Part shown: positions 2,906 through 64,000 of the stretch, in pieces
Numbering within the stretch: the stretch's first letter is position 1
Layout: each line of letters starts with the position of its first letter
Sequence record: MF327003
Reading direction: 5' to 3' (one strand)
Source: Shigella phage Sf14
DNA length: 64,000 nt
The notes under the pieces: generated by a model
What the model saw: the letters and a program-made list of their open reading frames with translations, nothing else
Databases searched by the model: none
What the model was told of the DNA's origin: nothing
Translations under genes and position numbers: made by a program

Positions 2906-3387
2906 TGGTTAAAAGGGTTATTCACCCCGCTAGAGCTAAATTAGTCGGGGCTATGAAGAACTTGCATACGGCTAATGCTCAAGTTGGGTATTTTCAGGAA
3001 CAAGGTCAACATAGCTCTGGTTTTTCTTACTCTGCTTTAATGTACTTGCATGAAGTTATTGGTGTACCAGCAGCTTCAGGTAAAGTATATCGTAGGTTGT
3101 TTGAAATTACTATGATGTTACACAGACAGACCTTGTTAGAGCAGACTAAGAAGAATCTCTATAAGCAATTAAACAGTCTTAATACTGACCCCTCAGATAC
3201 TTTAGAAGCATTTGCAAAGAGTGCTCAGAAAGCAATTAAAAGAGGTTTTGGTAATACGGCTATATTGCCTCCTAACGCTCCATCTACAGTTAAAAAGAAA
3301 GGCTTCAATGCCCCTCTTGTGGAAACTGGAGATTTACGAGATAGCCTTGCTTATAAAATCTCTACTAAGAAAGGTATTAAAAAATGA
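2905..3387 (+). CDS. head-tail joining/neck protein (by synteny)
   Basis: 160 aa ORF, start overlaps upstream stop (translational coupling). Confidence 0.3.
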   Translation: MVKRVIHPARAKLVGAMKNLHTANAQVGYFQEQGQHSSGFSYSALMYLHEVIGVPAASGKVYRRLFEITMMLHRQTLLEQTKKNLYKQLNSLNTDPSDTLEAFAKSAQKAIKRGFGNTAILPPNAPSTVKKKGFNAPLVETGDLRDSLAYKISTKKGIKK

Positions 3388-3785: not shown

Positions 3786-4359
3786 GAAAGGTATTGTCCG
3801 AGTTTTGGTTGATGTTATTGGTCACCGTCTAGCGAGAGACAAGAATAACAGACCAAATGTTATCAGGGCTTACCCTTCAGATAATTCCAATGATAAAGGT
3901 CTGAAACCAGACCAACCTTTTATTACAGTATACTGTCAAGATGCTACCACACCTTATGGTTGGGTTCTTGATAAGTTCGTGGAAGATGATGCAGTTTGTT
4001 ACAGAATTGCTTTCCAGATTCCTGTACTGATTACTGTAAATGGTAAAGGTGCTCACAGTATTATGCTTGAGCTAAAACAAAGATTAGAGATGAGTACTAC
4101 AAGAGATTATCTAGCTGACATGACAGGTGCTTCAGTACTTGATACAGGGGCTATCCCGAATGATTATACTTATCTCAACACAGATTTTGAAAATTCTGCA
4201 CCTCTTGTTGTAACCCTTGTAAAAAATTCAGTATTAAAAGATGAACGTGGAAGTATTATTGAACGTGTCATTGTGGATGGTGAATTGGTTTACGAGGAAG
4301 GACAGGAGCCACCAGAATATACTATCCATCTAGATGTAGACTCCAAAGGGGTAAAATAA
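3760..4359 (+). CDS. tail terminator/completion protein (by synteny)
   Basis: 199 aa ORF immediately upstream of tail sheath gene. Confidence 0.3.
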   Translation: MQLETAELEKGIVRVLVDVIGHRLARDKNNRPNVIRAYPSDNSNDKGLKPDQPFITVYCQDATTPYGWVLDKFVEDDAVCYRIAFQIPVLITVNGKGAHSIMLELKQRLEMSTTRDYLADMTGASVLDTGAIPNDYTYLNTDFENSAPLVVTLVKNSVLKDERGSIIERVIVDGELVYEEGQEPPEYTIHLDVDSKGVK

Positions 4360-5712
4360 ATGTGGAATCCAATTGTTAATGTAGATATTACATTGAACAC
4401 AGCAGGAACTACAAGAGAAGGTTTTGGTTTACCATTATTCCTTGCTTCAACAGATAACTTTGAAGAAAGAATCCGTGGTTACACTTCATTAACAGAAGTA
4501 GCCGAAGACTTTGATGAAAGTACTGCTGCGTATAAAGCTGCAAAACAGCTATGGAGCCAAACTCCAAAAGTAACTCAACTGTATATTGGTAGAAGAACTA
4601 TGCAATATACTGTTTCTATTCCTGATACAGTGGCTGAAGGAAGTGAATATTCATTGACAGTTGCTATCGGTGGTGGTGTTTCTCAGCCATTCCAATACAC
4701 TGCAAAAGAAAATGACACAGCACTTATTGTCTTGAATGAGTTTAAATCACAGATTGAAGCAAGCCCAACAATTAAAGATGGTGTTAATGCTAGTGTAACA
4801 GGTACTGGTGCTTCTGCGACGATGATTATTACTAAAGCTGGTGATAATGACTTCGTAAAAGTAACGTCCATTACACCTACAACGTCTATTGCAGCAACAA
4901 CTGCTGACACGGCTTCCGCTGCTCTGGCATCCATTGAAACATATTCAACAGATTGGTACTTCATCTCAGCAGAAGACAGAACTCAACAGTTTGTCTTGGC
5001 AATGGCTTCAGAGATTCAGGCGCGTAAGAAGATTTTCTTCACAGCTAATGCTGACGTTAAGGCTCTGCAAGGCACTGATTTGACCTCTGCAACAGATGTT
5101 CCGGCACAGTTAGCTAAGAGCAAGTACACTCGTACAGTTTGCTTGTGGCATCACACAGCCGAGTTTGACTACCCAGAAATGGCTTACATCGCATATGGTG
5201 CCCCATATGATGCAGGCTCAATTGCTTGGGGTAACGCCCAATTAACTGGTGTTGCAGCATCTCTACAACCTGCTAACCAGAGACCACTGATAAGCATTCA
5301 GAAGTCAGCTTTAGACACTCGTAGCTGTAACTTCATTGACCTCGATGGTGGGGTTCCTGTAGTGCGCAGAGGTATCACTTCTGGTGGTGAATGGATTGAT
5401 ATTGTACGTGGTGTTGATTGGCTTGAATCTGATTTGAAAACATCTCTGAGAGACTTGCTAATTAATCAGAAGGGTGGTAAGATTACTTATGATGATACTG
5501 GTATTACCCGTATTCGTCAGGTCATTGAAACATCTCTTCAGCGAGCAGTTAACAGAAAATTTTTGTCAACTTACACCGTTACTGTTCCTAAAGCCTCACA
5601 AGTTGCATTGGCAGATAAGAAAGCACGTATCCTGAAAGACATTACCTTCCACGGTATTCTTGCAGGGGCTATCTTGGATGTTGACTTGAAAGGCACAGTG
5701 GCTTACGAATAA
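4360..5712 (+). CDS. tail sheath protein
   Basis: 450 aa ORF followed by small tube gene, chaperone-sized ORFs and tape measure; canonical contractile-tail order. Confidence 0.6.
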   Translation: MWNPIVNVDITLNTAGTTREGFGLPLFLASTDNFEERIRGYTSLTEVAEDFDESTAAYKAAKQLWSQTPKVTQLYIGRRTMQYTVSIPDTVAEGSEYSLTVAIGGGVSQPFQYTAKENDTALIVLNEFKSQIEASPTIKDGVNASVTGTGASATMIITKAGDNDFVKVTSITPTTSIAATTADTASAALASIETYSTDWYFISAEDRTQQFVLAMASEIQARKKIFFTANADVKALQGTDLTSATDVPAQLAKSKYTRTVCLWHHTAEFDYPEMAYIAYGAPYDAGSIAWGNAQLTGVAASLQPANQRPLISIQKSALDTRSCNFIDLDGGVPVVRRGITSGGEWIDIVRGVDWLESDLKTSLRDLLINQKGGKITYDDTGITRIRQVIETSLQRAVNRKFLSTYTVTVPKASQVALADKKARILKDITFHGILAGAILDVDLKGTVAYE

Positions 5713-6249: not shown

Positions 6250-6651
6250 ATGAAGACTGAAACTAAAATGATTAACGGCAAGAAGGTAACTATTATTCTT
6301 CTTGGAGCAAGAGATGGTATCCGTATCTCTATGAAACTTGGTAAAGCAGTTGTACCAGCATTTGCACAGATGTTCTCTGGTTTAACCTCTAAAGATGGGG
6401 AAGCTAAAATCCCATTTAAAGAACTCGTTGAAGCTTGCTTTGAAAAGGTTGACGAACTAGATATTGATGCAATGGCAGAGACACTATTTCAGGGGGCAAC
6501 AGTTAACGACTTCCCACTGAAAATTGATAGTTACTTCCAAGCGAACTACGGTGAATTTATTGACTTCTTAGCTTTTGCTTTGGAGGCAAACTTCGGAAGT
6601 TTTTTCGAGGCAAGCATTTTCAAAAGCCTAACTTCTCAGCAGGAAGCTTAA
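6250..6651 (+). CDS. tail assembly chaperone candidate (by position)
   Basis: 133 aa acidic ORF between tube and tape measure. Confidence 0.35.
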   Translation: MKTETKMINGKKVTIILLGARDGIRISMKLGKAVVPAFAQMFSGLTSKDGEAKIPFKELVEACFEKVDELDIDAMAETLFQGATVNDFPLKIDSYFQANYGEFIDFLAFALEANFGSFFEASIFKSLTSQQEA

Positions 6652-6659
6652 GTTATTCT

Positions 6660-6887
6660 ATGCAGACCCCGCTGACTGACGGGGCTGTAAAGGCAACTTA
6701 TGATGAAGCAGATGAGATGAAATTTGTGCTTGCTATTTATGGTATGGATGGGTGTAAAGAAACACTCAACCAACTTTTTGATATGACCTTCGTTGATTTA
6801 TTATCTCTACGTCAGTATTTAGAAATCCAGAAGTCATATAAAGAAGAAATGGCTTACAACGAACTCAGAAAAGCAGGTAAAATTTAA
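6660..6887 (+). CDS. tail assembly chaperone candidate (by position)
   Basis: 75 aa ORF; stop overlaps tape measure start (TAATG). Confidence 0.3.
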   Translation: MQTPLTDGAVKATYDEADEMKFVLAIYGMDGCKETLNQLFDMTFVDLLSLRQYLEIQKSYKEEMAYNELRKAGKI

Positions 6888-9123
6888 TGGCACAATATAC
6901 AGTTGATAGTTTTATTGTTGAACTTGGATTCAGTGAAAAGGTTATTAAGGGTTTGCAAAGAGTTGAGAAAATGGCTATGCAGTCTGCTCAACGTATCGAA
7001 CGCAATATCAATAAAGCCTTTGATGTGAAGCCTAATAGAAGTTCACAAGACGCTCTAAACAGACTTGTAAAAAACGCTCAGACTGCTTCAGGCAGAATCA
7101 ATAAATCCCTAAACAATGCTATGAATTTAGATTCACAAGGTGTAAAATCACTTCGTAGATTAGAAACACAGGGTAAGAAAACAGCCAAAGAAATTAATAA
7201 GGCTCTAAGACAAGCTATGAATGTTGAAGGTAAAGTCAATGTTCGTGGTGGAGTTGGTAGAGGCCGTGGTAATACTATCCCTCCGGTTGGAGGTGGTGGT
7301 TCACCTAGAGTTAGACCTGATATTGCTCAAAGACAAATGGAAAGAATGTTTAATAACAACTTCTATTCTGGTTTGACTCGTCGTCTTGAAACAATTGGTG
7401 GACAAGGTAACCAAATGGCTACTTCCTTCAGAGGAAGCTTACAAGGAATCTATAATAAGTACAAAGGTAGTGGTAAAGTTGGTGAGTATGAGATGGAAGT
7501 TAAGAAACTCATTGACACTACCAAACGTTGGGTTATTGCAGAAAATGCTAGACTTAAGGCAGTCAGAGAGTCAGCTTGGTTACAAGACAGAGCAAACTCT
7601 TCACTAAGACAGCTTGTAGGTGGTTTTGTTTCAGCGTATGCTATGCTGGAATTAGCTCAGAAGACTATTGATGCAGGTGTAAAGAGACAGTCTGCACAGT
7701 TAGCCTCAACAGCTATCTTTGGAGGGGATACACAGCAAGCGAGAATGTTCGCTGCTACGTTCTCTCACCAGATTGGTCAGAACTACACAGACACTATGAA
7801 GCAGTACTCAAACTTCGCTGCTGGTGCTCAACCAGAGTTAGGTTTTAAAGGGACTCAAGAGTTCTATAAGAATGCTGCTATGTTCTCACGTATTCGTGGT
7901 GCTTCTGATGAAGACTTGAAAGGTATCATGGTTGCTTTCCAGCAAATGGCATCTAAAGGTAAGATTCAGGCTGAAGAACTTCGTGGACAGTTAGGTGACC
8001 GTTTGGCAGGTGCTGTTCAGTTATTTGCTGATGCTATTGGTAAAACTCCACAAGAACTTGACAAGATGATGAAAGATGGTCAGCTTCTTGCAAAAGACGT
8101 TCTACCAAAAGTCTCAGAAAAAATGAGAGAGCTTGTTGAAGCAGCAGGTGGTATGAATGCAGTTTCTAAGCAGACAGCTACCTCTATGGGTCAAGCAAAG
8201 GCAATGTGGGATAACACCCTTGTAGCTTTGTTTAACAACTCTAGCGAAGGTATCTCACAACTCTCTAACTCAGTTGCAATGTTCTTGCAAGGTTCCCTTG
8301 GTACATCTGAAGCACTTGGTACAGGTATTGGTTACCTTTTAAAAGGTGCTAGTAACCTTCTAGACTTCGTGACAGATATCATGTACCGCATTTCTTCATT
8401 ATACTATACCTCAATGGGCTATTTCAAGGAATTAGATGCTAGTCAACAGAAACTAATCAAGGATTCTGCTGAGTTAGTTGCTACGTTCACCGCTATTGGT
8501 GTCTCAATTGCAGCTATTACAAAAGTCGCTAAAATCTTTGGTGGTACTGTAGCATTTGTCAAGAGTATCTTTGAAGAAGGTATCTTAGCTAAGATTGCAC
8601 AGAAGTTTGGATTAACTACAGCAGCAGAAACAGCAGCTACAACGGCTGGTGTATCAGCAACCAGAATGGCTCTTGGTGTAGGTGGTTCTGCATTAATGTT
8701 ATCTGGTTCAGTTGACAAGAATGCTGGAAAGAGATTTAACGAGGTTAACACACCTAATCCTTTCAATGAAGCTATCTCAGGAATCACTAATCCAAAACGT
8801 CCAATGTTCTTTGACCAGAATGGACAACTTCAGTTTGCACAATATACCACAGACACTTCTGGAAATATTCAGAGAGTTGATAATGGTTTGTCAAATTGGG
8901 ATATTATCATGAACAACCTGTCTGAGTCTCTAAATAACTTTGCAAACAAGTTTAACCAGACACCTATGATGATGACTCCTTCTGGACTACCATTGCAAAC
9001 TAAGCAGACGCTTAACGTTTCCTTTAATCTGGATGGTAAGCAGATTGCTACTAAGATGGTGGATATCACTGATAAGAGTCAGGAAGATATTCTGTTAAAC
9101 TCTAGCTACCCAGAGGATGAATA

Positions 9124-11886: not shown

Positions 11887-12302
11887 TGAAAACAGATTTT
11901 GCAATCAATCTTGGTGGTGACTACGTAGCTAAATTAGGAAATGATTCTGTATACGTTGCTCACGGAGATTTAAAAATTACGGGTAATCAGATTAGAATTA
12001 TCCCAGAAGACGATAAAGCTACTCAGGTAGCTCAAAGATTACATATTAGGTGTCTTCTAAGGGCTGGAGAAGTATTCTTTAATACATCTGCTGGATTCCC
12101 TTATTTACAGCTTGCTAAGTTCAAGCAGAAGACCTCTATTTTTGATAATTATATGAAAGGTTACCTTGTTGAAACGAGAGATGTAACAAACATCTACAAC
12201 TACTCTTCAACAATGGATAATGCAATGAGAAAAGTGTCAGTCAGATTTAATGCAACGACAACTGCTGACGATGTTGAAATTAATACAGAGGTAAACATTT
12301 AA
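11886..12302 (+). CDS. baseplate wedge protein candidate (gpW/gp25-like position)
   Basis: 138 aa, directly precedes J-like gene. Confidence 0.35.
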
Positions 12303-13771
12303 TGGCTGGATTAACAACTACAGGTTTACAAACAAAAAGATATCAAGAAATCTTGGATGATGTTAAAGCAAGTCTGTATAGAGATATCTCACCAAACCTT
12401 GATGTTTCTGAAGATAGCGAACTTGGGTTATTCTTAGCTTCTGTTTGCCGAGGTCTTGCAGACGTTCATGAAATCTTGTCAGAAATCTATGATGGTGGTA
12501 CTATTGACAAAGCTGAAGGATTCAGTTTAGATGATGTAACAGCTTTGAATGCTGTATACAGATATGTGGCACAAGCTACAAGAGGTCAAGCTGAGTTCAC
12601 TGGTAACTCTGGTGCTCCTGTACCAGCAACTACAAGATTAAGAAGCACAGCAGGTAACATCTTTTACCCTGTGTCAACTTTCACGCTGACTCCATCTTAC
12701 TGTGTAGAGGCAAACTTAGAAGTTAACTCTTTACGAACAGATGCAAACTATGTTATTATCATTGATAACATTGAGTATTCATATCAGCCGACTAGCTCTG
12801 ATACCATTACAACATTGCTACAGAAACTTGCAGATGCTATTAATGGTGGTATTATTGCAAAGGCTGAAGTTACTAATGATGGCTCAGTTCTAAGAATCTA
12901 TAAAGACACTGGAGATATCATTGCCAGAACTAACCCTATGGTTGTTACTGCAACGACATTCTTAACATTTACAAAGATTACTTCAATCAGTGACGTTGTA
13001 GCAGATGAAACTGGAGCTATCCAGACTCTGGCAGGAACCTTGATTGAGATTGAAACAACTGTAGATGGTCTTGATAGTGTCTTCAACAGATATGATTTGA
13101 CAACAGGTCGTGATGAGGAAACTGACACAGAACTGAGACAACGTTACTTAGAATCTCTGGCTGTTACCGGTGTAGGTACTCTGGATGCTATTGTAGCTGC
13201 TGTAAAGAGAGTTCAAGGTGTGTCTGACGCTTCTGGTGTAGAAAATGATACTGAGACAACAAACTCTGATGGTCTTCCTCCGAAGTCTTTTAAGATTGTT
13301 GTAGTTGGTGGTCAGAATGATAATATTGCACAGGCAATCTGGGACACGAAACCTGCTGGTATTCGCCCATATGGTGCAATCTTTGGGACTGCATATGACT
13401 TAGGCTCTCTCCCTCACGATGTTTACTTTAGTAGACCAATGCCTAAATACGTTTTTGTCAAGGTCACTTACTCTCTTTACGATGAAGAAACTCTTAACAT
13501 CCCTGAACAGGATATTCATGACAGAATTGTTCAAGGTATCAATACCTATGGTAGAACGTTGAAAGTTGGTAACGATGTAATCCCTAACAGAATTTATGGG
13601 CATATCTATGATGTGATTCAAGGTATTGAGATTAATGAGATTAAGGTTGCACTTTCAAACAACCAAGCAATTCCACCTGCTGATGAGCAGTACACCACTT
13701 CAAGAATTACTATTGATGGTGACCAGTACACTGTTTGGGAAAGCTCACAGTATACAATTACCAAGGAGTAA
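12302..13771 (+). CDS. baseplate J-like protein candidate
   Basis: 489 aa, largest baseplate ORF, synteny. Confidence 0.4.
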
Positions 13772-58924: not shown

Positions 58925-59104
58925 ATTTCAAATCTGTGCAGGTATAGTTGAGTAGAACTCTGGACAGATTTCTTTAACTGAACTCCAAAGGGAAATTTCA
59001 TTTTCAAAACGTGCAGGTCTAGACTCCAAAGAGCTTTTTCATTTTCAATCTGTGCAGATGCAGTTGGACTCCAAAGGGAAAATTCATTTTCAAATTGTGC
59101 AGGT
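58919..59104. repeat. degenerate tandem repeat array, 4 units of about 41-45 bp
   Basis: Units carry ACTCCAAAG (58982, 59023, 59068; CTCCAAAG also at 58881), TTCATTTTCAA and TGTGCAG(G/A)T; followed by C-rich tract 59121-59156. Confidence 0.7.
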
Positions 59105-59573: not shown

Positions 59574-59735
59574 ATGATTAAAGAAAGCGATGTAATACAA
59601 TACAAAGATTTAGACGGATACCCAAAAATTGGTAAAGTCTTCTATCTCTATAAGTCTGCTATGGGTAATGATTGTATAGCCCTTACCAATGGCGACAAAA
59701 TAACCATGAAATATTTTATAAAAATTATTGCATAA
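59574..59735 (+). CDS. early small protein (53 aa)
   Basis: ATG with AAAAGG RBS; track ORF begins upstream at non-ATG. Confidence 0.3.
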   Translation: MIKESDVIQYKDLDGYPKIGKVFYLYKSAMGNDCIALTNGDKITMKYFIKIIA

Positions 59736-59740
59736 AGTGC

Positions 59741-59819
59741 TTTACATGGGGTTTAAAATCTAGTATCTTAAGCCCCAGATAAAGAGCTTTACAAACAATC
59801 CTAAACTGGAGAATCTAAA
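59741..59819 (+). promoter_or_regulatory. type 2 promoter/leader cassette (TTTACA-17-TATCTT with embedded hairpin, then conserved leader)
   Basis: TTTACATGGGGTTTAAAATCTAGTATCTTAAGCCCCAGATAAAGAGCTTTACAAACAATCCTAAACTGGAGAATCTAAAA; repeated at 4 other sites. Confidence 0.45.
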
Positions 59820-60116
59820 ATGTTTATTGCCGCAAACGTTAGAACTAAATTAAGCCAGCTATTAAGTAATATCCAATTCATTGAATCTATGCGCCGTACA
59901 TCTGAAGCCGTAGAGTGGTATCATGGAAAGATTAACAAAAAGGAAGTAATAATTTGTGTATGGAACTTTTGTAAAGAATACAAAAAACCATTGCTTCAGG
60001 TTGATATCTATGATAACACTAATAAGTCATCGATTAAGACCACTAGAGATATGGTTGATTCATATGAAATTAGTCACACTGGTAAACTATTCCACAAAGG
60101 TAAAAACAAATGTTAA
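59820..60116 (+). CDS. early small protein
   Basis: 98 aa behind type 2 cassette. Confidence 0.4.
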   Translation: MFIAANVRTKLSQLLSNIQFIESMRRTSEAVEWYHGKINKKEVIICVWNFCKEYKKPLLQVDIYDNTNKSSIKTTRDMVDSYEISHTGKLFHKGKNKC

Positions 60117-60457
60117 TCACATACGTTGCAATTTTTATCTCTATTGTGGCGCTCTATAAAGCCTTACAAGCGCACAGTATAGCTAATAAGGCACTTACAA
60201 GGGATTTAAAAATAAACCTTGTACGGGGCTTTTTAGAGCGTTTAAGCTTAGAACAATTGAAACGCTTAGAGATGAGCTTTCGATTCAAAGCAGAAACATA
60301 CCGGATTGATAACATCCTAGACGGTGATTTTAAATTAATCAGTGATTATGACATACTTCTTGAGTCAATTCAAGATATAAACCTGAAAGATTATTATATC
60401 GTGATAGCGCAAGAAATTAATAAAAAAGAGCTTGCAATGCAGAATCAAAACAAGTAA
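60110..60457 (+). CDS. early small membrane protein
   Basis: N-terminal TM helix (ITYVAIFISIVALY); 115 aa. Confidence 0.35.
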   Translation: MLITYVAIFISIVALYKALQAHSIANKALTRDLKINLVRGFLERLSLEQLKRLEMSFRFKAETYRIDNILDGDFKLISDYDILLESIQDINLKDYYIVIAQEINKKELAMQNQNK

Positions 60458-60460
60458 AGT
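60432..60460 (+). promoter_or_regulatory. early-type promoter TTGCAA-17-TAAAGT (type 1)
   Basis: Followed by ATTCATCAACGGGGCAAGATAGAAGCCCCAACAATCCTAAACTGGAGAATCTGAAAATG. Confidence 0.55.
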
Positions 60461-60516
60461 ATTCATCAACGGGGCAAGATAGAAGCCCCAACAATCCTAA
60501 ACTGGAGAATCTGAAA

Positions 60517-60789
60517 ATGTATACTACTAATGACGGTCGAACTTTGAACGTAACTTTAAAACACTATATAGACGGTGTATTAAACTTTGAAGAGTTAAGA
60601 GCAGAACAGCACCTATTAGATTGGCAAGTAGCAGGTTTACAAAAAACCGCCACAGGATATGGAAAGAAAATTCCTACATCTTGGAAAGTTCGATACCTTG
60701 GAAAGTTACGCAGAATTTATCAAGATGTTTATAGTAATAGCGGTGTAAGTTACATTATTGTTAGCGGTAAAAAATTGTATTTAGTCTAA
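60517..60789 (+). CDS. early small protein
   Basis: 90 aa behind type 1 cassette. Confidence 0.4.
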   Translation: MYTTNDGRTLNVTLKHYIDGVLNFEELRAEQHLLDWQVAGLQKTATGYGKKIPTSWKVRYLGKLRRIYQDVYSNSGVSYIIVSGKKLYLV

Positions 60790-60797
60790 TAAATTGC

Positions 60798-60879
60798 TTT
60801 ACATGGGGTTTATAGTTAGATAAGATAAGCCCCAGATAAAGAGATTTATCTAAAACTAACCTAAACTGGAGTATCAAAA
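60798..60879 (+). promoter_or_regulatory. type 2 promoter/leader cassette (variant)
   Basis: TTTACATGGGGTTTATAGTTAGATAAGATAAGCCCCAGATAAAGAG...CCTAAACTGGAGTATCAAAAATG. Confidence 0.4.
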
Positions 60880-61287
60880 ATGACTAATGCTAATCACAAA
60901 GAAGTTGCAATTTTGAAAGCACGTTTGACCATTAACCGCATCAACATTGTAACATCAGCAGCACCAGACGAAACTCTGCATAATATCATCGGTAAAATTC
61001 AGGGCGCAGTAGTAGACACAAAACAGCTTAAAGAATCCTTGCAAGATGTAGCAGCAGGGGCTATAATTGACGGTGCTCAATATGAGATGAAGGAAATGCT
61101 GTCAAAGTCAAAAGTAATGAATAAAGAACTTGACTTGAAAATGTTTCGATTTGCTGTTAAAGTGTGGCTATGTGTTGATTTTGATGCAAACTTTGCAATT
61201 GCTGATTTCTTTGCAACATGGTTACAGCGTAACTTACCGGTTGAAGTCTTCCGTGAAATCTGCGATGCAATTTATTCAGAGATTTGA
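60880..61287 (+). CDS. early protein
   Basis: 135 aa. Confidence 0.4.
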   Translation: MTNANHKEVAILKARLTINRINIVTSAAPDETLHNIIGKIQGAVVDTKQLKESLQDVAAGAIIDGAQYEMKEMLSKSKVMNKELDLKMFRFAVKVWLCVDFDANFAIADFFATWLQRNLPVEVFREICDAIYSEI

Positions 61288-61316
61288 TTGACATTGCAAA
61301 AGCATAGTAGTAGAGT
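61288..61316 (+). promoter_or_regulatory. early-type promoter TTGACA-17-TAGAGT (type 1)
   Basis: Consensus -35; followed by the same leader and hairpin as at 60461. Confidence 0.6.
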
Positions 61317-61372
61317 ACTCATCAACGGGGCAAGATAGAAGCCCCAACAATCCTAAACTGGAGAATCTGAAA

Positions 61373-61621
61373 ATGTTTAATATGTTGAATATCCCTGACA
61401 CTTGCCGACTCTTAACACAATTTGATAACCTTGGCAAGCCGTTTTTATATCATATGCCAGATAACACTGCAAAAACTTACAGTTACATTGTAAACCGTTT
61501 TACGGCTTATGGTTCAAAGTATGGCTATAATGTCAAGACTCAAAAAGTGACTTTGTTCACAAGTATTGAAGAGTTACCAACTGTTGCCGTTAAACTAATC
61601 TTTACAAAGAAAACTAAATAA
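61373..61621 (+). CDS. early small protein
   Basis: 82 aa. Confidence 0.4.
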   Translation: MFNMLNIPDTCRLLTQFDNLGKPFLYHMPDNTAKTYSYIVNRFTAYGSKYGYNVKTQKVTLFTSIEELPTVAVKLIFTKKTK

Positions 61622-61626
61622 AGTCC

Positions 61627-61705
61627 TTTACATGGGGTTTAAAAGCTAGTATCTTAAGCCCCAGATAAAGAGCTTTACCAACAATCCTAAACTGGAGAAT
61701 CTAAA
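61627..61705 (+). promoter_or_regulatory. type 2 promoter/leader cassette
   Basis: TTTACATGGGGTTTAAAAGCTAGTATCTTAAGCCCCAGATAAAGAGCTTTACCAACAATCCTAAACTGGAGAATCTAAAATG. Confidence 0.45.
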
Positions 61706-62263
61706 ATGAAATGCTTCCACGGTACTACACAAGAAAACTTTGTAAACCTTATTAATGGCGGTGATAAACCATCAGGAGTCTGGAATTGCTCTGATATGGA
61801 TGGATGTTTTTATGTCTACCCTGTTAGCAAGTTCTATGATGTAGAAAATCTGGATGACGAACAAATCATAGATGAAGGTATTAAAAACGCGCTTGATAGC
61901 GCAAGCATTACAGCAGCCTATCAAATGAAGTCACAAAAGCTTGTTATCTTGGAACTGGATATTCCAGAAGATGATTTACAAGATGACTGGAGCTGTGAGA
62001 ACATGAGCGACGTAGCAAGCTTTACAGAATATTTCGATAAAGAATGGATTAAAAAGGTTTACACAACTGAATTTAATGCTATGTATGCGCCTTTCTTTGT
62101 CCCTAACCTGAATAATAGGAACTTGGGTTATATACCAGATGAATTACGCAACATTGCGGCAATAGTCCAACGTAGTGATGAGATGAGCAATGTATATTGT
62201 GATATCTTTGACACAATGCAATTCAACGTAACAGAAACGGCTATAAACGACTTAACAGCATAA
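61706..62263 (+). CDS. early protein, unknown
   Basis: 185 aa, acidic. Confidence 0.4.
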   Translation: MKCFHGTTQENFVNLINGGDKPSGVWNCSDMDGCFYVYPVSKFYDVENLDDEQIIDEGIKNALDSASITAAYQMKSQKLVILELDIPEDDLQDDWSCENMSDVASFTEYFDKEWIKKVYTTEFNAMYAPFFVPNLNNRNLGYIPDELRNIAAIVQRSDEMSNVYCDIFDTMQFNVTETAINDLTA

Positions 62264-62326
62264 ACGATAGAATCATACCAGTTCACTAGAAAAGCCCCGC
62301 ATAGGGGCTTACAAGAGGCTTAAAAC

Positions 62327-62557
62327 ATGCTTACTACAATCTATCTTATTCTATCTATCTGCAATGGTTCACAGTGTGACTTTAAAGGTTTAGAAGAGTT
62401 TACAGGTAGCGAAAATAATGCTATTGTTGCTTGTCAGATAGCAAGGCAAGATTACCCTGCATCAGATGATATCCAATGTTACTATAAATCAGAAGATGAT
62501 TATGGCATTTACTTTGACAGTGTGAATGGTGATTATGAAATTCTTATAGAAAAGTAG
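62327..62557 (+). CDS. early small protein
   Basis: 76 aa; preceded by hairpin AAAGCCCC-GCATA-GGGGCTT and AGAGG RBS. Confidence 0.35.
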   Translation: MLTTIYLILSICNGSQCDFKGLEEFTGSENNAIVACQIARQDYPASDDIQCYYKSEDDYGIYFDSVNGDYEILIEK

Positions 62558-62586
62558 TTGACACTGAAAACGCAAACAAGTAAAGT
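62558..62586 (+). promoter_or_regulatory. early-type promoter TTGACA-17-TAAAGT (type 1)
   Basis: Followed by ATTCATCAACGGGAAGGAAACTTCCCC...CCTAAACTGGAGAATCAAAAATG. Confidence 0.6.
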
Positions 62587-62646
62587 ATTCATCAACGGGA
62601 AGGAAACTTCCCCACTAAACAAAATTCCTAAACTGGAGAATCAAAA

Positions 62647-62868
62647 ATGTTGCAAGTTCTTAACGTAAAAACCATTGATTTTAAATTCTCAAATGTTCGT
62701 CGTACCTATTTACAGCCATTTAATAACCCTGTTAGAATTCCCAACGATGACGCTAAAAAGTTGATTGATGAAATTCTAGCTAATGGCGGTTATCTGGCTA
62801 GTCATAAGCAGTATAATGATGAGGCTGGAAGCCTGATAAATGAGTTTACATATTATTACTACAAATAA
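62647..62868 (+). CDS. early small protein
   Basis: 73 aa. Confidence 0.4.
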   Translation: MLQVLNVKTIDFKFSNVRRTYLQPFNNPVRIPNDDAKKLIDEILANGGYLASHKQYNDEAGSLINEFTYYYYK

Positions 62869-62880
62869 CTAATAAAGTCC

Positions 62881-62959
62881 TTTACATGGGGTTTATAGTT
62901 AGATAAGATAAGCCCCAGATAAAGAGCTTTACCAACAATCCTAAACTGGAGAATCTAAA
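62881..62959 (+). promoter_or_regulatory. type 2 promoter/leader cassette
   Basis: Same element as at 60798 and 61627. Confidence 0.45.
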
Positions 62960-63157
62960 ATGTTATCACTGATGCAAAAACTTTCTACCTTGTGGTGTTT
63001 AAAAGGTGTAGAGTGTAACCTTAACATGGAAGGTTCAAAGATAGACCTAAAAATAGTATACAATGGAGAAATACTATTCTCACAGAATAGCAGTCATCCA
63101 CACTTCAAAGATAATGCAATTATGGCCGTGAATAATCTGATGGATAGAATTTATTAA
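62960..63157 (+). CDS. early small protein
   Basis: 65 aa. Confidence 0.35.
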   Translation: MLSLMQKLSTLWCLKGVECNLNMEGSKIDLKIVYNGEILFSQNSSHPHFKDNAIMAVNNLMDRIY

Positions 63158-63162
63158 AGTGC

Positions 63163-63242
63163 TTTACATGGGGTTTAAAAGCTAGTATCTTAAGCCCCAG
63201 ATAAAGAGCTTTACCAACAATCCTAAACTGGAGAATCTGAAA
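63163..63242 (+). promoter_or_regulatory. type 2 promoter/leader cassette
   Basis: TTTACATGGGGTTTAAAAGCTAGTATCTTAAGCCCCAGATAAAGAGCTTTACCAACAATCCTAAACTGGAGAATCTGAAAATG. Confidence 0.45.
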
Positions 63243-63584
63243 ATGGCCTATGTAACAATTATCACCGATAAAGAAAATTCGTCATGGTCTACCCAAGTTA
63301 ACGACAAAATGAAACCTATGCAGTGTCTCAAGTACTTTGAGCAATGGAACAGGGGAGAAGATGTAAGCCCCTTTCAAGTGATGCAGATTGTACATGTTGA
63401 CAATGAAGGGAATAAAACTACCCTTAACACTGAATACTATGCTACACGTTTCGAAACTCGCAAATCAGCTATGCAGGAGTTAAGAGAAAAGGGATATAGT
63501 CACATTGCCGCGCTCATTTGGTCTGATTTGCTTAAAAAACAGTCATTAACCTATGTTAAGCCAGAAAAAATCTTTATAAGCTAA
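63243..63584 (+). CDS. early protein, copy 1 of tandemly duplicated gene
   Basis: 113 aa; identical to product of 63659..64000. Confidence 0.45.
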   Translation: MAYVTIITDKENSSWSTQVNDKMKPMQCLKYFEQWNRGEDVSPFQVMQIVHVDNEGNKTTLNTEYYATRFETRKSAMQELREKGYSHIAALIWSDLLKKQSLTYVKPEKIFIS

Positions 63585-63658
63585 TCAACAACTTATAAAA
63601 ATCTTTTGAAAAACAGATAAAGAGCTTTACCAACAATCCTAAACTGGAGAATCTGAAA

Positions 63659-64000
63659 ATGGCCTATGTAACAATTATCACCGATAAAGAAAATTCGTCA
63701 TGGTCTACCCAAGTTAACGACAAAATGAAACCTATGCAGTGTCTCAAGTACTTTGAGCAATGGAACAGGGGAGAAGATGTAAGCCCCTTTCAAGTGATGC
63801 AGATTGTACATGTTGACAATGAAGGGAATAAAACTACCCTTAACACTGAATACTATGCTACACGTTTCGAAACTCGCAAATCAGCTATGCAGGAGTTAAG
63901 AGAAAAGGGATATAGTCACATTGCCGCGCTCATTTGGTCTGATTTGCTTAAAAAACAGTCATTAACCTATGTTAAGCCAGAAAAAATCTTTATAAGCTAA
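63659..64000 (+). CDS. early protein, copy 2 of tandemly duplicated gene
   Basis: Translation identical to 63243..63584; stop codon is the last 3 bases of the window. Confidence 0.45.
   Translation: MAYVTIITDKENSSWSTQVNDKMKPMQCLKYFEQWNRGEDVSPFQVMQIVHVDNEGNKTTLNTEYYATRFETRKSAMQELREKGYSHIAALIWSDLLKKQSLTYVKPEKIFIS

Follow-up and report, generated by a model that had tools for sequence, protein, structure and literature searches.

The stretch of DNA analysed here (the window) comprises the 64,000 nt of Shigella phage Sf14 that end on two identical, head-to-tail copies of a small early gene. The question raised by this locus is whether the phage itself carries the gene twice, as the product of a recent or long-maintained duplication, or whether the second copy exists only in the deposited sequence. 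We addressed it from the structure of the repeat, its place in the source record, the copy number of the gene in related phages, the ends of records deposited by the same submitters and the position of the terminal repeat known for the subfamily.

A perfect repeat at the end of the Sf14 record

Direct comparison and Tandem Repeats Finder place the first copy of the repeat unit, 416 nt long, at 63198..63613 on the plus strand and the second copy, on the same strand, at 63614..64000, where it is clipped at 387 nt by the end of the window. Over this length the two copies are identical at 387/387 positions, with 0 mismatches and 0 indels, which bears out the perfect 416-bp tandem repeat described in the initial annotation; Tandem Repeats Finder reports a period of 416, 1.9 copies, 100% matches and a score of 1606. 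The left limit of the identity is sharp, base 63197 being different from base 63613. This is the sole perfect repeat of at least 80 nt within the 64-kb window, and a perfect repeat of 387 nt cannot have arisen by chance.

Both copies begin with a 45-nt leader that includes a GGAG ribosome-binding site (63198-63242 in copy 1 and 63614-63658 in copy 2, plus strand), followed by an ORF of 113 aa. The ORF of copy 1 spans 63243..63584 and that of copy 2 spans 63659-64000, both on the plus strand, and their translations are identical, as had been claimed. Copy 1 continues for a further 29-nt tail (63585-63613, plus strand). The TAA of copy 2 forms the final bases of the window, and the earlier remark that the window ends exactly at the second stop codon therefore holds. 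The 113-aa protein is assigned to phrog_4318, a family of unknown function; it has no Pfam family, and the single sub-threshold match obtained there is of no value. The gene is conserved across Ounavirinae, and the ORF of copy 1 is a genuine gene.

A consensus scan identified a promoter-like site, TTTACA-17 nt-TATCTT, at 63163..63191 (plus strand), upstream of copy 1 only; from its sequence we infer a promoter role for it. The site is overlapped by a 10-bp hairpin at 63169..63199 (plus strand; fold -13.5 kcal/mol, z = -2.3), the 3' arm of which terminates at the left edge of the repeat unit. Copy 2 thus retains the leader and ribosome-binding site without the TTTACA/hairpin part, in agreement with the initial annotation. 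The site at 63163..63191 is part of a promoter/hairpin/leader element that recurs in the early region (repeat family D1). The early region itself, 59704-63660, is a series of small gene cassettes, and in front of every cassette stands a conserved element, ~95-117 nt long, which combines a promoter-like site (TTTACA or TTGACA) with a G+C hairpin and with the leader CCTAAACTGGAGAATC that precedes the ATG. This element is present in 4-8 copies with 60-95% identity, and part of it is annotated as a repeat_region in the Mordin record. An imperfect tandem repeat with a period of 45, 2.9 copies and 75% matches lies at 58982-59102.

The window was positioned on its source record by means of the total GC, GC1, GC2 and GC3 values published for each CDS of Sf14 (NC_042075), which we compared in genome order with those of the window ORFs. 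The published values for gp027 and gp026 are both 0.380117 / 0.412281 / 0.324561 / 0.403509 (PMC12482277, supplementary table), and both copies in the window compute to identical values. The next two genes inward match to six digits: gp028 corresponds to the ORF at 62960-63157 and gp029 to the ORF at 62647-62868. In RefSeq numbering copy 1 is gp027, and gp026 and gp027 are the last two CDS in the Sf14 genome order. The window therefore covers the final 64 kb of the record of Sf14 (MF327003 / NC_042075), which ends on the stop codon of copy 2. Coincidence of the repeat with the ends of the source record had been named in the initial annotation as evidence against a duplication, and this is what we find, the two copies being the last two CDS of the record. 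By its GC values, gp001 (47 codons) corresponds to the 46-aa membrane-protein gene that lies 3' of the single-copy 113-aa gene in Shigella phage Sf16. The Sf14 record thus resumes, according to these values, with the gene that comes after the single copy in related phages. The same published study lists gp027 among five 'early' genes of Sf14 (PMC12482277).

The locus in relatives and in sister records

The phage, a Felix O1-like myovirus, belongs to the genus Mooglevirus (Ounavirinae), and Sf14 is the species exemplar of Mooglevirus Sf14. Its closest relative among searchable records is Sf16, which belongs to the same species and is 98.5% identical over 22 kb and 99.8% identical upstream of the junction between the two copies. 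Comparison with related genomes for copy number, proposed in the initial annotation, gave a uniform answer: the 113-aa gene is single-copy in 240/240 related phage records found, and the gene for the identical protein is single-copy in all 10 of the contigs listed, out of 23 on record, metagenome assemblies included. In the records and contigs compared, the 113-aa gene is followed by ~197 nt of intergenic sequence and then by the 46-aa gene.

Collinearity between relatives and the window breaks off precisely at 63613/63614, beyond which the relatives have a TTGACA promoter and the 46-aa gene. At this point the window reads GAAAAA/CAGATAAAG (63613..63614), compared with GAAAAA/CTATTGACA in relatives; in Sf16 the sequence runs ...TCTTTTGAAAAA/CTATTGACAATGCCCC..., compared with ...TCTTTTGAAAAA/CAGATAAAGAGC... 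in the window. The 24-mer across the junction has zero matches in the viral, metagenome and genome contig collections. Microhomology at the junction amounts to 1 nt (C), and the right breakpoint lies outside the repeated promoter/leader elements; we therefore rejected recombination between such elements as the origin of the duplication.

No other early-region duplication of at least 150 nt was found among 13 related loci. The stretch examined in vB_SflM_004, a candidate second place, holds no second copy of the gene. One 89-kb contig, GCA_033239445.1, carries two adjoining 82-aa early genes (4088-4336 and 4424-4672 in our locus L010) at a place where the other relatives have a single one. No match of at least 150 nt was found between the adjoining pair, which is therefore not a near-perfect repeat; the two may be genuine diverged paralogues.

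We then consider the other records of the same submitters. For six other Mooglevirus records the last and first 1500 nt were joined and searched for perfect direct repeats. Five of the six carry a perfect duplication of 248-427 nt, 100% identical, at the record end or within about 1 kb of it. These duplications all lie at different genome positions, among early genes, in the tape-measure chaperone region or in a baseplate gene. In Sf13 the first 248 nt, from the tape-measure chaperone region, equal the last 248 nt; the same stretch is single-copy in the window, at 6598-6845. The first and last 248 nt are likewise equal in Sf15, as are the first and last 427 nt in Sf17, where the duplicated 87-aa gene has two annotations, of which the second bears the placeholder tag 'Sf17_xxxxx'. 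The Sf16 record has a 395-nt tandem unit that runs across its end and start (88001-88395 equals 88396-88580 plus 1-210). A chimeric ORF of 44 aa results from this unit, and the record closes with a stop codon.

The Sf18 record also ends on a stop codon. Its 416-nt tandem repeat (88886-89301 equals 89302-89717) lies 553 nt before the record end, inside a baseplate gene that is annotated as two overlapping 'baseplate assembly protein' CDS (88385-90270 in our locus L032). Because 416 is not a multiple of 3, this repeat would frameshift the gene, which in the window is one intact ORF of 489 aa at 12302-13771. The sixth record, Sf19, begins with ATG and showed no such end repeat in the joined-ends search.

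Origin of the second copy

These observations, taken with the position of the subfamily's terminal repeat described below, make it very probable that the repeat belongs to the deposited record, where it stems from an untrimmed contig-end overlap, and is not a feature of the phage. Reads of a phage with a short terminal repeat would assemble as a circle, which the assembler would put out as a linear contig with ends overlapping by 416 nt. In the case of Sf14, the original contig would have started at the base that is now 63614, run round the circle and ended at the base that is now 63613, with the 416-nt overlap left untrimmed. The record would then have been re-opened by cut and paste so as to finish with a stop codon, and the opening 387 nt of the contig, through the TAA of the 113-aa gene, would have been shifted to the record end. 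The end overlap would thereby become a perfect tandem, 416 + 387 nt long, with which the record closes, and the real continuation would stand at the record start. A contig overlap followed by re-opening of this kind would account for the 416 + 387 structure, for the sharp junction and for the end of the record on a stop codon.

This editing history is what we infer for the Sf14 record. The first bases of that record lie outside the window, and the model predicts that they read TCAACAACTTATAAAAATCTTTTGAAAAA, followed by CTATTGACA. Extended to the sister records, the same model, which is the simplest one and agrees with every record, would have Sf13, Sf15 and Sf17 deposited unaltered, with the overlap copies at opposite ends, and Sf14, Sf16 and Sf18 cut and rejoined to place a stop codon at the record end, with the copies in tandem. 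The Sf14 repeat resembles untrimmed contig overlaps in its 100% identity, its length of one to two read lengths, its location at the break point of the record, its arbitrary junction, its absence from relatives and its recurrence within records from the same workflow. Its copies stand in tandem at one end, like those of Sf16 and Sf18, whereas the copies of Sf13, Sf15 and Sf17 stand at opposite ends. Among the readings that the initial annotation had offered, the assembly artefact is thus upheld by the record-end position and the defects of the sister records; two real early-gene copies and gene conversion are not upheld.

Adaptive tandem amplification occurs in viruses, as in the 'genomic accordion' of poxvirus K3L, and tandem duplications are classical in lambda and T4. 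By analogy, Sf14 could have undergone a real and very recent tandem duplication of an early-gene cassette through illegitimate recombination or replication slippage, but we consider this improbable. On such a reading the promoter-less copy 2 would be read through from copy 1 and might be under selection for dosage, as in an 'accordion'-like amplification. It is likewise improbable that the two tandem phrog_4318 genes stem from a new amplification, driven by dosage, of an early gene for host takeover or anti-defence, and that this amplification broke the assembly at that point. The tandem duplication is, after all, present in the sequence as deposited, and the unit has the form of a tidy cassette whose limits are approximately a transcription start and a point shortly upstream of the following promoter. 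Its left edge lies ~7 nt after the -10 hexamer and its right edge just before the -35 of the next promoter, a placement that looks rather neat for a contig end of arbitrary position.

Cassettes do come and go within the early region. Sf16 is without the 175-aa (PF26821, T4 Y16F-like) and 87-aa early genes (3132-3198 in our loci L003/L017, compared with 6679-7661 in L008), both of which are present in Sf14 (gp002, gp003) and in 3HA14, a cassette-sized difference within one species. Moreover, the record-end position is not fully independent evidence, because a true 416-nt repeat would, if longer than the reads, itself break the assembly there. Against these points, the duplication is unique to Sf14 among the 240 records and the 10 listed contigs of 23, its junction was not found in the three large collections searched (viral, metagenome and genome contigs), it coincides precisely with the point at which the record was linearised, and the two copies show zero divergence. 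Equivalent perfect end duplications occur in 5/6 sister records, and one of them frameshifts an essential-looking baseplate gene. The Sf14 repeat shares with the viral amplifications the head-to-tail arrangement of a small early gene and a homology-free junction, but it differs from them in having no independent occurrence, no divergence and no known selective context, and its position at a record end can be explained technically. The tidy edges and the assembly-break argument are outweighed by the batch-wide pattern and the frameshifted Sf18 baseplate gene.

Felix O1-like phages have short direct terminal repeats, for which PhageTerm gave 581 bp in Pr103Blw and 613 bp in Ro111lw. The 416-nt unit could accordingly be regarded as a direct terminal repeat of similar size, brought into tandem by rotation of a linear genome that carried both repeats; a homology-free junction is what joined genome ends would be expected to give. 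In the Pr103Blw record the repeat is annotated twice, once at each end, and the sequences of both ends match exactly. However, the 581-bp repeat of Pr103Blw aligns over its full length, at 74-78% identity, with a non-coding gap of the Moogleviruses and not with the 416-nt unit; in Pr103Blw itself, 1.85 kb separate the homologue of the 113-aa gene from the repeat downstream of it. The homologue of this repeat is found at 3871-4440 in Sf16 (our locus L017) and at 8345-8915 in 3HA14 (our locus L008), inside a 1.6-kb non-coding gap after the early genes, ~1-2 kb downstream of the 113-aa gene.

The terminal repeats of Ounavirinae (T7-type packaging) and the Sf14 unit are alike in length, in the exact identity of their copies and in lying in the same general part of the genome, where the early region ends. 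They differ in that the terminal repeat occupies the non-coding gap 1-2 kb downstream, whereas the Sf14 unit is coding and has no similarity to it. In addition, the near-identical sister phages have record overlaps at differing places, which is impossible with fixed termini. We thus rejected the 416-nt unit as the conserved terminal repeat, since the Felixounavirus repeat maps by homology to the downstream non-coding gap, and we judge a direct terminal repeat in Sf14 at this site to be very improbable. By the same homology, the non-coding gap is likely to be the site of the physical genome ends in Moogleviruses, and the Sf14 terminal repeat is to be expected a short way past the window, where the Sf14 record begins. 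In Citrobacter phage KMM2, the first 64 nt of the record equal the last 64 nt and the record break falls inside the terminal-repeat homologue; for this reason the 'DTR' call made for KMM2 from a Nanopore assembly is a small end overlap.

That the copies are two old paralogues held identical by ongoing gene conversion deserves next to no credence: the coding and leader sequences are perfectly identical, as conversion would have them, but the non-coding 29-nt tail is also within the identity, up to the sharp junction, no second copy occurs at any divergence in a relative among the 240 records found, and single-copy synteny across the junction is already seen in relatives.

Consequences for the records

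With an untrimmed contig overlap as the preferred reading, the Sf14 reference record (MF327003 / NC_042075) is probably 416 bp too long and has one gene too many. The extra gene has entered a published codon-usage and tAI analysis of Sf14, in which gp026 and gp027 have identical values and the gene is counted twice (PMC12482277). The records of Sf13 and Sf15-Sf18 have the same type of defect, which in Sf18 splits the baseplate gene into two annotated CDS. Where perfect tandem repeats are flagged at record ends, the break point and the sister records should be checked first. The repeat is of little biological importance for the phage, and its use lies in the curation of Sf14 and its sister records.
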